From assembly GCA_014816185.1 (NCBI GenBank), contig GCA_014816185.1_4095.1: a stretch of DNA of 64,000 nucleotides; one strand, 5' to 3'. This stretch comes from a phage. The translations under genes and the position numbers were made by a program. The notes under the pieces are model-generated. The model saw only the letters and a list, made by a program, of their open reading frames with translations, was not told where the DNA came from and did not search any database. Every line of letters begins with the position of its first letter. The first letter of the stretch is position 1. Shown piece by piece: positions 5,474 through 25,331 of the stretch.

Positions 5474-5574
5474 ATCAAAAATCGCACTTTTTAAAGCTTT
5501 TAAAAAAGGCGATTTTATTCAGTACTAAATAATATCATACTTTATACGAATGTAATATATCTATGGAGGATATA

Positions 5575-6423
5575 ATGGCGAATTTAAAACTACTACAAGA
5601 AGCAATTGCGGCGTTTGCAAATGGCGAACAAGATATTGCTGATAAAAAAATGCGTAAGTATTTCGTTGAGCAAGCTCAAGAAATTAACAAACAACTAGAA
5701 GAAAGCATGGAAGATGAAGACGACGATGAAGATTGTGAAGTCGAAGTTAAAGTCAAAGATGAAGAAAAGCTTGACGAAGATTTTGATGTACAACCAGACG
5801 AAGGTCTAAATGCTGAAATCGAATACACCCTTGGTGAAGAAGATGAAAGTGCAGAAGAAGAAGTTGAATTCTCTGCTGATGCAGATGGTGACGGTGAAGA
5901 CGATGTTGACGTTGAAGTGAAAGCTGATGCTGATGTTCCTTCCGAAGACCAATGGGAATCAATCCAAGATGCTTTCCGTGGCCTACAACAAATGTTTGAT
6001 GAAATCGGTGACGGTGAAGTTGATCTAGATTCTGAAGAAGAAGTAGAAGATAGCGAAGAAGAAGTTGGCGTTGACGGTGACGACGAATTTGCTGATGTTG
6101 AATTCGGTGATGAAAAATTCGGTGAATCCTTCAAACTAGAAAAAGTTGCTCCAGTTGATAAGAAAGAAAAAGCTGGCACTCATTCCAAATCTCCAGTAGC
6201 ACCAGAAGCTAAATCTCCAGTAGCAGGAGCAGAGCCAGTTAAATTCGCTAAGAAAACTGACCAAGCACCACTACTAGACCTAGATGATAAATCTGTTCTA
6301 CCAAAAGATAGTCTAGATCTTGGTAAAAATGCTCGCGGTGAAATGAAAGATGTTAAAGCACCAAAAACTACTGCATCTAATTCTAAATCACCACTAAGCA
6401 AAGCACAACCTAAACTAAAATAA
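5575..6423 (+). CDS. highly acidic prohead core/scaffold-like protein
   Basis: ORF 5563-6423; likely start ATG 5575 after GGAGG; long Asp/Glu-rich tracts; sits between portal and prohead protease; upstream ACTAAATA late-promoter-like motif. Confidence 0.6.
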   Translation: MANLKLLQEAIAAFANGEQDIADKKMRKYFVEQAQEINKQLEESMEDEDDDEDCEVEVKVKDEEKLDEDFDVQPDEGLNAEIEYTLGEEDESAEEEVEFSADADGDGEDDVDVEVKADADVPSEDQWESIQDAFRGLQQMFDEIGDGEVDLDSEEEVEDSEEEVGVDGDDEFADVEFGDEKFGESFKLEKVAPVDKKEKAGTHSKSPVAPEAKSPVAGAEPVKFAKKTDQAPLLDLDDKSVLPKDSLDLGKNARGEMKDVKAPKTTASNSKSPLSKAQPKLK

Positions 6424-7078: not shown

Positions 7079-7086
7079 TATAAATA
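7079..7086 (+). promoter_or_regulatory. T4-type late promoter TATAAATA
   Basis: Exact TATAAATA 48 nt upstream of the gp22-like start; followed by a 9-bp hairpin. Confidence 0.45.
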
Positions 7087-7133
7087 TCTGTATGTTGAAG
7101 TACAGATATTTCAGTACTTAAAGGAGAGAACGA

Positions 7134-8340: not shown

Positions 8341-9516
8341 ATGTCACAACTACTAAATGAATCCAAATGGGTAGCAGTAAAAGAGAAACTAGTTGAAGGT
8401 CTACAGGGTACTCGTAAGTCTGTAATGGAAACTGTTCTTGATAACCATCGTAAAGTTATGCTAACTGAATCCGCAACTTCTGGTGCAACTACCGCTGGTA
8501 ACATCGCTACTCTAAACAAAGTGATTCTACCAATTATGCGTCGTGTAATGCCAACCGTTATTGCTAACGAAATCATCGGTGTTCAACCAATGACTGGTCC
8601 AGTTGGTCAGATCCACACCCTACGTGTGCAATATGCTGATAACGCACCTGGTGTTATCGCTGGTGAAGAAATGCTTTCTCCATACAAAATCGCTAAATCC
8701 TACTCTGGTGATCTAAATGCGGATAATAGCAACCCACAAGCTGCTCCTACTAGCCAACTAGAAGGTACTATGGGTCGTCGCGTTAACATCCGTATTCTAC
8801 GTGAAACTGTTGAAGCGAAATCTCGTCGTCTATCTGCACGTTGGACTGTTGAATCTGCACAAGATGCTCAATCCCAACATGGTGTTGACGTTGAAGCAGA
8901 ACTAATGGCTGCAATCGCTCAAGAAGTTACCGTAGAAATCGACCAAGAGCTACTAAGCCGTCTACGTGCACTACCTGGTGCTGCTGCTGTAACTTATGAC
9001 CAATCTAAAGTTACTGGTGTTGCAACCTTCGTTGGTGATGAGCACGCTGCTCTAGCAACTCTAATTAACCGTCAAGCAAACGAAGTTGCTCGTCGTACTA
9101 AGCGTGGTGCTGCAAACTGGGCTGTTGTTTCCCCAACTGCACTAACCATTCTACAATCTGCTACTACTTCTAGCTTTGCACGTACCACTGAAGGTACTTT
9201 CGAAGCACCAACTAACGTTAAGTTTGTAGGTACTCTAAACAGCACTATGCGTATTTTTGTTGATACGTATGCTTCAGATGCCGAGGACATTTTGATTGGT
9301 TATAAAGGTAATGCTGAAACTGATGCTGGTGTGTTCTATTGCCCATACATCCCACTAATGGCTTCCGGTACTGTAATGGACCCTAACACTGGGGAACTCG
9401 TTACAACTTTCTTAACCAGATACGGGTATGTTCAGTTGACCGATAGCACCAGTTCACTAGGTAACGCTGCTGACTACTACAGCAAAATCGCTATCAAAAA
9501 CGTTACTTTCATGTAA
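8341..9516 (+). CDS. gp23: major capsid protein (T4 gp23 family)
   Basis: 391 aa; ILPIMRRVMPTVIANEIIGVQPMTGPVGQIHTLRVQY and VEAKSRRLSARWTVESAQDAQSQHGVDVEAEL align with remembered T4 gp23; strong RBS AAGGAGA; strong terminator downstream. Confidence 0.92.
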   Translation: MSQLLNESKWVAVKEKLVEGLQGTRKSVMETVLDNHRKVMLTESATSGATTAGNIATLNKVILPIMRRVMPTVIANEIIGVQPMTGPVGQIHTLRVQYADNAPGVIAGEEMLSPYKIAKSYSGDLNADNSNPQAAPTSQLEGTMGRRVNIRILRETVEAKSRRLSARWTVESAQDAQSQHGVDVEAELMAAIAQEVTVEIDQELLSRLRALPGAAAVTYDQSKVTGVATFVGDEHAALATLINRQANEVARRTKRGAANWAVVSPTALTILQSATTSSFARTTEGTFEAPTNVKFVGTLNSTMRIFVDTYASDAEDILIGYKGNAETDAGVFYCPYIPLMASGTVMDPNTGELVTTFLTRYGYVQLTDSTSSLGNAADYYSKIAIKNVTFM

Positions 9517-9985: not shown

Positions 9986-10024
9986 TAGATAAATATCTCC
10001 ATATTAATGATGGAGATTGAATCT

Positions 10025-16539: not shown

Positions 16540-17271
16540 ATGGATCTACGCAACGTACTACGTGACCTCGTAAACACAACCAGTGGTATTGACTTCTCTT
16601 GTATTGCAGTAAGCAGTGAAGACCGTGGTGAAGGACAACGTGTATATCTAGAAGCGTACACAGATGACCGAACTCTTGTAATGCGAGCATATACTAAAGA
16701 AGATGTTCCTGAAGTTCAGGGTCGTTTTGGCTTAGGTAATCTAGGTCTTCTTCAGGGTCTAATGTCTCTAAAAACATACAGTACCGAAGGAACCACAATC
16801 ACATCAAATGTTAAAGATGGTTCAGTTAAAAGTCTGGCATTTAAATCTGAAGATGCAAGCACTACATTTATGGTACAAGCTGAAAAACTTATTCCAGTTC
16901 AACCACGTTTTCATGAACAACCATATGACGTACAGGTTATTCCTAGTGCAGCAAAAGTTCAGGAACTAAAGAGTTTTTCTGGTGTATTTAAATCTTTTAG
17001 TTCTCTTGTAACTCCGTATACTGAAGGCGACACCCTATACTTTCACGTTGGTGAGAAAAACAAAAGTAACCACGTTGGTTCTCTAGCTTTTTCTAAAACT
17101 GAAGGTGAATTAGGTCTTGGTTTTGGTTATAATATTGATCGCGTACTTCAAGCATTATCTCGCGTATCTAATGCCGAATCAGTATCACTTGGTATTACTA
17201 AAACTGGTATGCTAAATGTAACACTAGATACTGGAATTGCAGTATACAAATTTTACGTAACTGGCTGCTAA
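16540..17271 (+). CDS. hypothetical protein; possible sliding clamp (gp45-like)
   Basis: 243 aa, downstream of polymerase; size and C-terminal half loosely resemble T4 gp45; not a secure match. Confidence 0.35.
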   Translation: MDLRNVLRDLVNTTSGIDFSCIAVSSEDRGEGQRVYLEAYTDDRTLVMRAYTKEDVPEVQGRFGLGNLGLLQGLMSLKTYSTEGTTITSNVKDGSVKSLAFKSEDASTTFMVQAEKLIPVQPRFHEQPYDVQVIPSAAKVQELKSFSGVFKSFSSLVTPYTEGDTLYFHVGEKNKSNHVGSLAFSKTEGELGLGFGYNIDRVLQALSRVSNAESVSLGITKTGMLNVTLDTGIAVYKFYVTGC

Positions 17272-17279
17272 TATAAATA
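17272..17279 (+). promoter_or_regulatory. T4-type late promoter TATAAATA
   Basis: Exact TATAAATA directly followed by hairpin GGGGAACA-cta-TGTTCCCC (17282-17300). Confidence 0.45.
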
Positions 17280-17335
17280 ACGGGGAACACTATGTTCCCC
17301 AAATTAGTTTGATTTAAAAAGTAAAGGAATACAAA

Positions 17336-17543: not shown

Positions 17544-17843
17544 ATGAAAATTAAAATGATTAATGATTACGTTCTTGTTCGACAAATTGAAGCACAGAAT
17601 AAAAGTACTGGTGGTATTATTCTAGGTAATGTTGAACCACCATGTATTGGGATGGTAATTTCCGTTGGTCCAGGTAAAATTCTTCCGAACGGACAACTTG
17701 CAGAACATAATATTAAAGAAGGTGATATGGTTGTGTTTGGTCGTTCATCTTTGAACACACCACTGACTGAAGATCTTGGTGGCGGCGAAGATACATATTA
17801 TGTAATGAAAATCGAAGAGATTTTTGGTAAGAAAAATGGCTAA
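17544..17843 (+). CDS. groES: co-chaperonin GroES (Hsp10) homologue
   Basis: ORF 17481-17843; start ATG 17544 after GGAGG; DYVLVRQIEAQNKSTGGIIL ... VGPGKILPNGQ ... IKEGDMVVF aligns with E. coli GroES. Confidence 0.85.
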   Translation: MKIKMINDYVLVRQIEAQNKSTGGIILGNVEPPCIGMVISVGPGKILPNGQLAEHNIKEGDMVVFGRSSLNTPLTEDLGGGEDTYYVMKIEEIFGKKNG

Positions 17844-18561
17844 AAAGAAATTTATTCCATTTTGGATGGTCCCTGCTCACTGGGGACTTTCTGGAAAGGC
17901 AAAAGAGATAGCTAAAGCATACTACTACAATGATGATTATGAAGCTGATATGAAAGTTGCTGAATTGACATATCTAACTCCATATGAAGTTGAAGTGGCC
18001 CAATTGGATATTAAAAAGAAATATAGCGTAATTGGAGATTTGGAATATCTAATTGCTGTACTTGATGTTGAACTAAAATATTCTAAAATTACTCGTGAAC
18101 AGTATGATGTTAAAGTTCTTGATGCAAAACTAAGTATTGGAGTTATTACAGAAAAAGAATATGATATGGAAATCATTGAGTTAATGCCAGAAGGTGATGA
18201 AAAAAGGCTTAAGGCTATTGAATTTGCATATCGTTACGATGAAATCACACAAAGTGAATATTCTAAGGAAATATACACACTTCGTAAAGAACCTTGGATT
18301 GATTTGGATGTTGTTCTTGATCCTGAAACTAATGAAGTTGAGTTTGTATTTGACTATAATGAATATTTCTGGAAAAAGTTGAAAGCTGAAGGTCATCCAG
18401 GAAATGATGAAGAAGAAATTATCGATAACTTTGTGAGAGACTTGGGGCGTAAACTTGCTACGGATGATTTCAGTGATGATTACGACACAAAGCTGGTGAG
18501 TGCGAACGAAGGATTAGACAAGCTACCTGGTTTGCCTGAAGGATTTCGTTCATATAGATAA
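17836..18561 (+). CDS. hypothetical protein (about 240 aa)
   Basis: ORF 17824-18561; probable start ATG 17836, overlapping groES stop. Confidence 0.5.
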   Translation: MAKKKFIPFWMVPAHWGLSGKAKEIAKAYYYNDDYEADMKVAELTYLTPYEVEVAQLDIKKKYSVIGDLEYLIAVLDVELKYSKITREQYDVKVLDAKLSIGVITEKEYDMEIIELMPEGDEKRLKAIEFAYRYDEITQSEYSKEIYTLRKEPWIDLDVVLDPETNEVEFVFDYNEYFWKKLKAEGHPGNDEEEIIDNFVRDLGRKLATDDFSDDYDTKLVSANEGLDKLPGLPEGFRSYR

Positions 18562-18565
18562 CATA

Positions 18566-18600
18566 TAAAAAAAGGAGAGCAAATGCTCTCCTTTTCTTTT
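18566..18600. terminator. bidirectional Rho-independent terminator
   Basis: A-run, GGAGAGC-aaat-GCTCTCC, T-run; between convergent genes. Confidence 0.75.
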
Positions 18601-18608
18601 GAAAAATA

Positions 18609-19298
18609 TTAAACCAATGCTGGGATGTATTGGAAAAGTTTAACACCGAAATCACCTGCTGCATCAGCAGATTGGGAACGTAGGTAAACTTCGGTAACAC
18701 CATCTTTAGCAAGTAGTGGAACACCAGTTAGATCATCAATTAGTAGACGGCCTTCTTCGGATTCAGTACTTGGTACACCTTGTGGTGATTTAAGATCTTT
18801 GTTAAAGACACCCGCACGTTCAACTAGGAAGGTAACAACAGAAGCATCAGCAATACTAACTGAACCTGCACTCAATACACCATCAGGTGCGTTGGTGAAA
18901 CCAGTAACTGGAAATACTTCAAGACCATTACCTGCGATGTTAGAGGTAGCGATGATAACCGCACGTTGTTGAACAACATCGACAATACGTTTAACGTTAG
19001 TTTGTGCTGCATAAGATGCATTGTAATCAGCTTCTAGTGTGCCAAGAACAAATGCAGTTCCATCAATACGTTTGATACCTTTATCATTTAGATATGCTAG
19101 AATTTCTTCTGGAATATCAGTGTTTAGAAAACGTTGTAGACCAGCATAAGAAGAAACTGCACCAGTAACTAGAACGTTTACGTCTCCTAGCTTACTGATA
19201 GCAATGGATGCTAGGGCGTTAGTGCCACAAAAGTAACCTAGAATACGTTCAAAGGAATAACCATTGATACGTTCAAAAGAAGTATTAGTATATGACAT
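18609..19298 (-). CDS. putative virion structural protein (paralogue A)
   Basis: 229 aa; perfect SD AGGAGGA 6 nt upstream; shares QQRAV..TS and F-x-ER-x-VFNK blocks with the adjacent upstream ORF. Confidence 0.6.
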   Translation of the reverse strand: MSYTNTSFERINGYSFERILGYFCGTNALASIAISKLGDVNVLVTGAVSSYAGLQRFLNTDIPEEILAYLNDKGIKRIDGTAFVLGTLEADYNASYAAQTNVKRIVDVVQQRAVIIATSNIAGNGLEVFPVTGFTNAPDGVLSAGSVSIADASVVTFLVERAGVFNKDLKSPQGVPSTESEEGRLLIDDLTGVPLLAKDGVTEVYLRSQSADAAGDFGVKLFQYIPALV

Positions 19299-19312
19299 AA
19301 TCTATCCTCCTA

Positions 19313-19912
19313 TTATAGTTGAACAGGAAGAGCAGCACGTACTTTAATTGCTACAGCAGTAGATGCACCTGCATCACCAACACCATCAGTACCTTGACTT
19401 ACGAAAGTTTTGGTACGGAAAACTTTAGCTTGAGCGATAGACTTAGCTAGGTCAACAGTTGGATCAACTGGAGCAGGACATGCTGAACCAGGACGAACTT
19501 CTTGCTTGTTAAATACGTCTTGACGTTCACAGATGAAAGTCAATGCAACAGAATTAGCACCACCTGCTACATCAGCACCACTAGTGCCGAACGCAACTAC
19601 GTTTGGATTAGCATTTTTGAAATCAGCAGGAATAACAACTTCTGAATCAAGAGCTAGTAGAGAGGTAGTAACTAGAACTGCACGTTGTTGTAGTAGTTGG
19701 GTAACCATGAATAGGTTATATTGAGCATTACTTAGAGCAGTTTGATACGCTTCAGCTTGAACATCAGAACCGTCAGAAGTAACTTTGGTAGTACCTAGTT
19801 CAACATCAGTTGGTAGATCGATTACGATGGTAACGAAACCGTTATTACCACCCCACCATTCGCGAGCAACGCTAGACATACCATAGTTACGGTTAAAAGA
19901 ATTAAGACTCAT
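19313..19912 (-). CDS. putative virion structural protein (paralogue B)
   Basis: 199 aa; RBS AAGGAGA; paralogous to 18609-19298; Gly/Ala/Val/Thr-rich. Confidence 0.6.
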   Translation of the reverse strand: MSLNSFNRNYGMSSVAREWWGGNNGFVTIVIDLPTDVELGTTKVTSDGSDVQAEAYQTALSNAQYNLFMVTQLLQQRAVLVTTSLLALDSEVVIPADFKNANPNVVAFGTSGADVAGGANSVALTFICERQDVFNKQEVRPGSACPAPVDPTVDLAKSIAQAKVFRTKTFVSQGTDGVGDAGASTAVAIKVRAALPVQL

Positions 19913-20035
19913 GAAAATCTCCTTGTCAAATTTTGTGCAGGTATATCCTGCTTAAAGTTATTTATCAAAAAATATCACTAGCATTTAAATTTACTGAGAT
20001 ATTTAATGAATTTCTATGATATTATTTATCAAATC

Positions 20036-20073: not shown

Positions 20074-25331
<5,258 letters not shown>

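Follow-up and report, generated by a model that had tools for sequence, protein, structure and literature searches.

Decoration and cement proteins of phage capsids are small, are expressed late and at capsid-scale copy number, are restricted to particular clades and possess a flexible terminal arm that may become ordered once they bind. RaK2-like jumbo phages (121Q, phAPEC6, RaK2, K64-1) are models of very large capsids as well as therapy candidates. Cryo-EM of phAPEC6 and 121Q has revealed a hexagonal network at a ratio of about 1:1 with the capsid protein, which the authors could not link to a gene. The phAPEC6 map has a resolution of 10 Å, and the authors allow the density of the second layer to be part of the capsid protein itself. 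The heads of both phages also enclose a radiation-sensitive 'inner body' of 91 x 18 nm. We describe a pair of adjacent genes whose products are prime candidates for the outer network. The searchable literature to mid-2026 and the PDB sequence set gave neither a high-resolution capsid structure of a RaK2-like phage nor a role assignment for this pair.

A tandem pair of virion protein genes

The DNA under study, referred to below as the window, is a stretch of 64,000 nucleotides. A previous sequence-only reading had described two adjacent minus-strand ORFs of 229 and 199 aa, and we found both at exactly the coordinates given there. The 1.7-kb region that holds them matches Escherichia phage vB_EcoM_phAPEC6 (Asteriusvirus), in which the genes are named gp210 and gp211, at 100% identity; with 121Q, PBECO4 and about 20 further Asteriusvirus genomes the identity is 98.7% or more. 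Orthologues of gp210 are RaK2 ORF107w, CBB_271 and 121Q 618, and those of gp211 are RaK2 ORF106w, CBB_270 and 121Q 617.

19313 to 19912, minus strand: gp210, 199 aa, 20.9 kDa, pI 4.8, the upstream and shorter paralogue ('A type')
18609 to 19298, minus strand: gp211, 229 aa, 24.3 kDa, pI 4.6, the downstream paralogue ('B type')

phAPEC6 is a RaK2-like jumbo myovirus of about 350 kb and not T4, though it has T4-like core genes. Besides a DNA polymerase, GroES and an RNaseH/FEN nuclease, the window holds the following:

3433: portal
6444: prohead protease
7134: scaffold
8341: gp23-like major capsid protein
22307: large terminase

The gp210/gp211 pair is located between the head module (portal to capsid) with the GroES gene on one side and the large terminase on the other, while the tail genes are distant.

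Some genes close to the pair can be described further. The convergent neighbor of gp211, gp212c (17824-18561, plus strand), codes for a very acidic protein (pI 4.6), matches phrog_13349 'virion structural protein', overlaps the end of the GroES gene and adjoins the gp210/gp211 pair in all lineages. It is missing from the phAPEC6 virion list, and its orthologue in fENko-Kae01, CDS_299, was detected with 24 spectra. gp215c (16540-17271, plus strand; 243 aa, phrog_12062) is present in phAPEC6 virions at 26% coverage and its orthologue CDS_295 is abundant in fENko-Kae01 (46 spectra); Pfam, NCBIfam and PDB sequence searches returned no match for it. On the upstream side, gp209c (20080-21117, plus strand) is labeled 'DNA polymerase' in MK817115, yet its match to PF02739 (E=2.5e-16) shows it to be a 5'-3' exonuclease of the FEN/RNaseH kind, and the start chosen in that record yields a product shorter than those from ATG 20131 or TTG 20080.

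Both proteins had been suspected to be abundantly made, duplicated virion proteins, and published mass spectrometry on phAPEC6 and three relatives bears this out. ESI-MS/MS of phAPEC6 virions identified gp210 with 6 peptides (69.8% coverage) and gp211 with 13 peptides (69.9%), compared to coverages of 74.9% for the major capsid protein and 68% for the sheath, so that both rank with the best-covered proteins of the virion (PMC7247149). RaK2 ORF106w and ORF107w were seen as abundant gel bands at their predicted masses and were called 'two distantly related proteins' (PMC3622015). CBB_270 reached a coverage of 91.3%, the top of the CBB data set, and CBB_271 one of 56.4% (PMC5259590). The orthologues in fENko-Kae01, CDS_300 and CDS_301, were detected as well, so that the pair is found in four virion proteomes (RaK2, CBB, phAPEC6 and fENko-Kae01). 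gp210 and gp211 thus belong to a family of virion proteins from jumbo phages that is already catalogued, and their duplication and abundance have been known since 2013.

How abundant the proteins are can be estimated from two sides. The coverage of the pair in phAPEC6 and CBB is about equal to or above that of the capsid protein. In fENko-Kae01 the two proteins gave 0.25 (55/217) and 0.21 (40/187) spectra per residue, the capsid protein 0.27, the sheath 0.035 and the annotated tube proteins 0.016-0.033; the sample was merely ultrafiltered and contained many non-structural proteins, and these ratios are therefore rough and semi-quantitative. With the same reservation, the pair exceeds sheath and tube by a factor of 6-14 (6-7 for the sheath). 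There was no sign of proteolytic processing, as the RaK2 bands run at the predicted mass and CBB_270 is covered to 91%.

Copy numbers of this order would suit an internal capsid site equally well. The pair might represent internal head proteins, for instance of the inner body, that are packed with the DNA and possibly ejected. There would be room for hundreds of copies in the inner body, in keeping with the abundance, and the position near the head genes suits this reading equally. [quoted passage not shown] According to the RaK2 and CBB data, however, gp210 and gp211 appear unprocessed, and both proteins are acidic (pI 4.6-4.8). A better-placed candidate is the orthologue of gp228c, which is encoded between the portal and protease genes, and the phAPEC6 authors put forward RCC1-like proteins for the inner body instead. 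We consider an internal location of gp210 and gp211 improbable.

gp228c (5563-6423, plus strand) encodes a protein of 286 aa that matches phrog_15696 'virion structural protein', and a late box lies upstream of it at 5525. In the fENko-Kae01 proteome its orthologue CDS_283 ranks first by intensity (131 spectra, 1.17e7), while coverage in phAPEC6 is just 16.7%. This makes gp228c a candidate for a processed core or inner-body protein.

Expression signals and codon usage

The region contains the following signals.

20015 to 20029, minus strand: distal T4-late-like box ATAAATAATATCATA, the same 15-mer as upstream of the major capsid protein gene
19959 to 19966, minus strand: proximal T4-late-promoter-like box GATAAATA, within TTGATAAATAAC, about 45 nt before the gp210 ATG
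19937 to 19951, minus strand: 5' leader hairpin of 5 bp, GCAGG-ATATA-CCTGC, directly after the proximal box
19919 to 19924, minus strand: Shine-Dalgarno sequence AAGGAG of gp210, 6 nt before the ATG
19305 to 19312, minus strand: Shine-Dalgarno sequence TAGGAGGA of gp211, 7 nt upstream of the ATG; it overlaps the gp210 end
18567 to 18598, both strands: terminator-like hairpin of 14 bp between the convergent gp211 (minus) and gp212c (plus), with a U-rich run on either strand

The very strong ribosome-binding sites that had been pointed out earlier stand up to a ranking by anti-SD duplex energy: among the 86 window ORFs of at least 80 aa, gp211 comes first and gp210 ninth, alongside the capsid, scaffold and protease genes. 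The stop codon of gp210 is separated from gp211 by 14 nt without a terminator between them, and a short intergenic gap is kept in RaK2, CBB, fENko, BF, XbC2 and Vibrio phages. This close spacing suggests co-transcription and coupled translation of the two genes.

Upstream of gp210, the proximal box in the form TTGATAAATAAC is conserved across genera, from Escherichia to Vibrio phages. The distal 15-mer, when up to 2 mismatches are allowed, has 7 matches in the window compared to 1.19 expected, and 4 of them lie just upstream of virion protein genes. An 11-nt core of this box also precedes the tube gene gp275c. The leader hairpin was compared in 8 phages: all cells (100%) are paired, three of the five pairs show compensatory changes and none of 500 shuffles reaches the covariation score, in a small sample of 8 sequences with changes in two lineages. 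From the sequence we infer that a late transcript may start near the hairpin at 19937-19951, which would resemble a 5'-terminal stabilizing stem. By eye, a T4-late-like box (T/G)ATAAATA followed by a short hairpin recurs on the plus strand at approximately 7079-7115, 9988-10020 and 17272-17305, and one of the recurring sites lies upstream of the scaffold gene.

The pair had been proposed to be flanked by a bidirectional terminator, and this holds in part. The hairpin at 18567-18598 folds on the minus strand (-19.7 kcal/mol, z -6.4) as well as on the plus strand (-16.6 kcal/mol, z -5.4), has U-rich runs on both and bears the label terminator in the records of UE-S1 and G17, whereas a strict terminator scanner flagged it on the minus strand only. 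Judged from its letters and folding, bidirectional action is plausible. A terminator is found on the downstream side of the pair only; the upstream side is taken up by a divergent promoter region.

Codon usage sets both genes apart from most others. CTA makes up 70% of the Leu codons in gp210 and 80% in gp211 compared to 25-31% elsewhere, TTA is near 0 compared to 30-35% elsewhere, and CGT accounts for 94% and 90% of the Arg codons in gp210 and gp211, respectively. When 74 genes were ranked by capsid-gene-like codon usage, the pair came 2nd and 4th, the sheath gene 10th and the tube gene 21st. The capsid gene (8341-9516), gp210, gp211 and gp228c (5563-6423) share a pattern in which CTA makes up 68-80% of Leu codons and TTA is almost absent. 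CTA is a rare codon in E. coli, and a search of the window for a phage tRNA that would account for the bias found no tRNA gene.

These signals bear on a function put forward earlier. The RaK2 paper of 2013 tentatively proposed ORF106w/ORF107w as the tail tube because of their size, abundance and beta-strand content (PMC3622015), and a tube protein of about 21-24 kDa would indeed be plausible in a large myovirus. However, codon bias and late-promoter box match those of the major capsid protein gene, and the abundance in fENko-Kae01, semi-quantitative as it is, appears to be capsid-scale and far above that of the sheath. Moreover, gp275c, gp274c and gp273c adjoin the sheath gene gp277c and match PHROG tail-tube families, whereas the pair lies about 80 kb from gp277c. 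The gp275c/gp274c/gp273c family is annotated as tube in several records and reaches PA5oct-like and SCTP-2 phages, in which tblastn found no homologue of gp210. The predicted fold of the pair, described below, is not tube-like, and no tube-family profile matched. A tail-tube role for gp210 and gp211 is thus unlikely, and the proposal that one of them forms the tube has in our judgment very little probability.

The three genes gp273c-gp275c (L005 36644-39307, outside the window) are consecutive, lie downstream of the sheath gene and match PHROG 4542, 13438 and, weakly, 45. They give a low MS signal and are, besides the pair, another set of structural paralogues in tandem.

Paralogy, distribution and predicted fold

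The sequence-only reading described the two proteins as paralogous, with shared blocks, and our comparisons agree. A pairwise BLASTP alignment of gp210 and gp211 (E=8e-9) has 35% identity over the central 89 aa, including the QQRAV..TS and ER..VFNK blocks. An alignment of 58 sequences of both types matches end to end with 12 invariant columns, among them Q-R-x-V, S and E-R, and the main difference of gp211 from gp210 is a helical insertion of about 35 aa following the first strand. Both proteins match PHROG 9326 ('virion structural protein') over its full length (profile positions 1-195 of 195), with E=3.4e-86 for gp211 and E=1.3e-86 for gp210. The earlier failure to place them in a T4 family is expected given that the phage is RaK2-like and not T4. 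The family as such was already catalogued under this PHROG number.

The family, PHROG 9326 or RaK2 ORF106w-ORF107w, is spread over the RaK2-like jumbo phages of the genera Asteriusvirus, Alcyoneusvirus, Eneladusvirus and Mimasvirus. Homologues are limited to these phages and to related metagenomic contigs: tblastn hit 74 phage records, there are 29 and 74 clusters at the 90% identity level, and a profile search of 1.84 billion representatives matched just 42 clusters. Each genome or contig examined, including metagenomic relatives at 25-40% identity, has two adjacent copies on the same strand and opposite to their neighbors. The surrounding order is conserved as well: GroES/Zn-ribbon, a structural gene, the gp210/gp211 pair, FEN/RNaseH, two small genes and TerL. 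Sub-family HMMs assign nearly every member to either the gp210 or the gp211 type, indicating that the duplication is older than most of the clade, and the retention of both copies over a long time argues for non-redundant roles. A clean split of all distant members into the two types broke down in the clade that diverges most, whose two tandem copies both score gp211-like.

This clade (L013 10001-10903, L015 4409-5281; P0130, P0131, P0135) differs in further respects: the downstream copy ends in an additional domain of about 90 aa that contains GGxGY-type repeats, and the TerL gene is seemingly divided into two ORFs that flank a third, small one. Vibrio phage 2.275.O encodes a third, divergent copy of the gp210 type (NVP2275O_488, L012 1135-1818, 66 bits) directly upstream of the pair, with a box-plus-hairpin leader of its own. 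In one metagenomic relative, a 267-aa ORF that has no PHROG match (L006 9068-9871) separates the FEN/RNaseH gene from the pair and may be a mobile element or a homing-endonuclease-like insertion. The single large protein matched in the profile search was P0141 (1054 aa; Laminin_G_3 and He_PIG repeats, signal-like N-terminus). Its apparent fusion of an 'anchor domain' was rejected, as the match was made through three repeated stretches and is a repeat artefact.

Beyond the family, gp210 and gp211 had no significant match in Pfam or NCBIfam (at Pfam E<=0.1, only a sub-threshold GLMA_C), and PDB sequence searches with single sequences and the 58-sequence profile gave nothing below E=0.3. Two GenBank labels were also set aside. 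No haemagglutinin model in Pfam or NCBIfam matches phAPEC6 gp211, which is named 'hemagglutinin repeat-containing protein', and scans of the same databases lend no support to the label 'recombination protein' of the CRJP21 orthologue of gp210.

AlphaFold2 models built from the family alignment were fair to good in confidence and reached pLDDT 79 and pTM 0.77 for gp211 and pLDDT 85 and pTM 0.81 for gp210. Both are predicted to have a disordered N-terminal arm of about 20 residues bearing family-invariant residues, followed by a strand, a 26-residue helix with the QQRAV motif and a mixed sheet, which together form a generic ferredoxin-like alpha/beta sandwich. Foldseek against BFVD recovered the family itself and weak matches to uncharacterised proteins of Atu_ph07 and uncultured phages; the fold comparison gave no tube-like match. 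Neither by sequence nor by fold was a known decoration family matched (gpD, Soc, Dec, Hoc, pb10, phiKZ minor capsid proteins). Extra domains are tolerated in some members, namely the helical insert in gp211 and the C-terminal domain of about 90 aa in P0130 and P0135.

The models are of relevance for a further possibility, in which the pair would belong to other abundant surface structures, either as the 'fibre-anchoring' protein at the hexamer center or as the bases of the hair-like fibers on head and tail. The density at the hexamer center looks dimeric, neither it nor the capsid fibers have been linked to a gene, and the extra C-terminal domain of some distant members would suit a design of anchor plus display. 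Yet the hexamer center provides for approximately 540-810 copies and tail rings for tens, which is below the near-capsid-protein signal of both paralogues, and neither model has fibrous or coiled-coil features. We regard such a surface role as rather unlikely.

A candidate for the outer capsid lattice

We propose that gp210 and gp211, which may act as a hetero-pair, make up the outer lattice that decorates the T=28 capsid, a reading to which we assign an even chance. The placement on the capsid is suggested by abundance, capsid-gene-like expression signals, head-module neighbors, lack of processing, acidic pI, the conserved arm and the inserted domains. In this proposal, gp210/gp211 would be a late two-gene operon with a T4-type late box, a 5' hairpin, two strong ribosome-binding sites and a terminator, and its output would be two anciently diverged paralogues in roughly equal, capsid-scale amounts. 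Each alpha/beta core would be seated on the layer of the major capsid protein as a decoration or cement protein, while the conserved unstructured N-terminal arm would lock onto a neighbor, either the capsid protein or the partner paralogue. Jointly, the pair would make the hexagonal network seen in the heads of phAPEC6 and 121Q.

Hetero-association is suggested by co-expression and co-retention. More tentatively, and with less confidence than in the lattice as such, we suggest that a hetero-pair whose fold is new among capsid accessory proteins builds the 1:1 network, that the zig-zag over the local two-folds might correspond to alternating paralogues, and that the network might be a two-component cement specific to RaK2-like phages.

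As duplication and abundance were already published, we reason that the new element is the reassignment from the tail tube to the capsid lattice. It would offer cryo-EM model builders two specific chains for the T=28 head and would correct the two misleading database labels, but it does not amount to a new kind of biological system.

Comparison with known systems places the pair as follows. With the tail tube proteins of myoviruses (T4 gp19/Hcp-like; PHROG 4542 and 45) gp210 and gp211 share size and virion abundance. They resemble the inner-body proteins of phiKZ in being abundant paralogous head proteins of a jumbo phage with an inner body; however, the phAPEC6 authors report no sequence similarity of the phiKZ proteins to any phAPEC6 protein, and gp210 and gp211 are apparently not processed. 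The likeness to decoration and cement proteins (lambda gpD, T4 Soc, phage L Dec, phiKZ minor capsid) would extend further, as gp210 and gp211 are likewise small, appear to be made in capsid-scale copies and late with the capsid protein, are clade-restricted and probably have a flexible arm. In contrast to these families, they are predicted to adopt a ferredoxin-like alpha/beta sandwich and not a beta-tulip, OB or Soc fold, and they come as two always co-retained paralogues instead of a single species.
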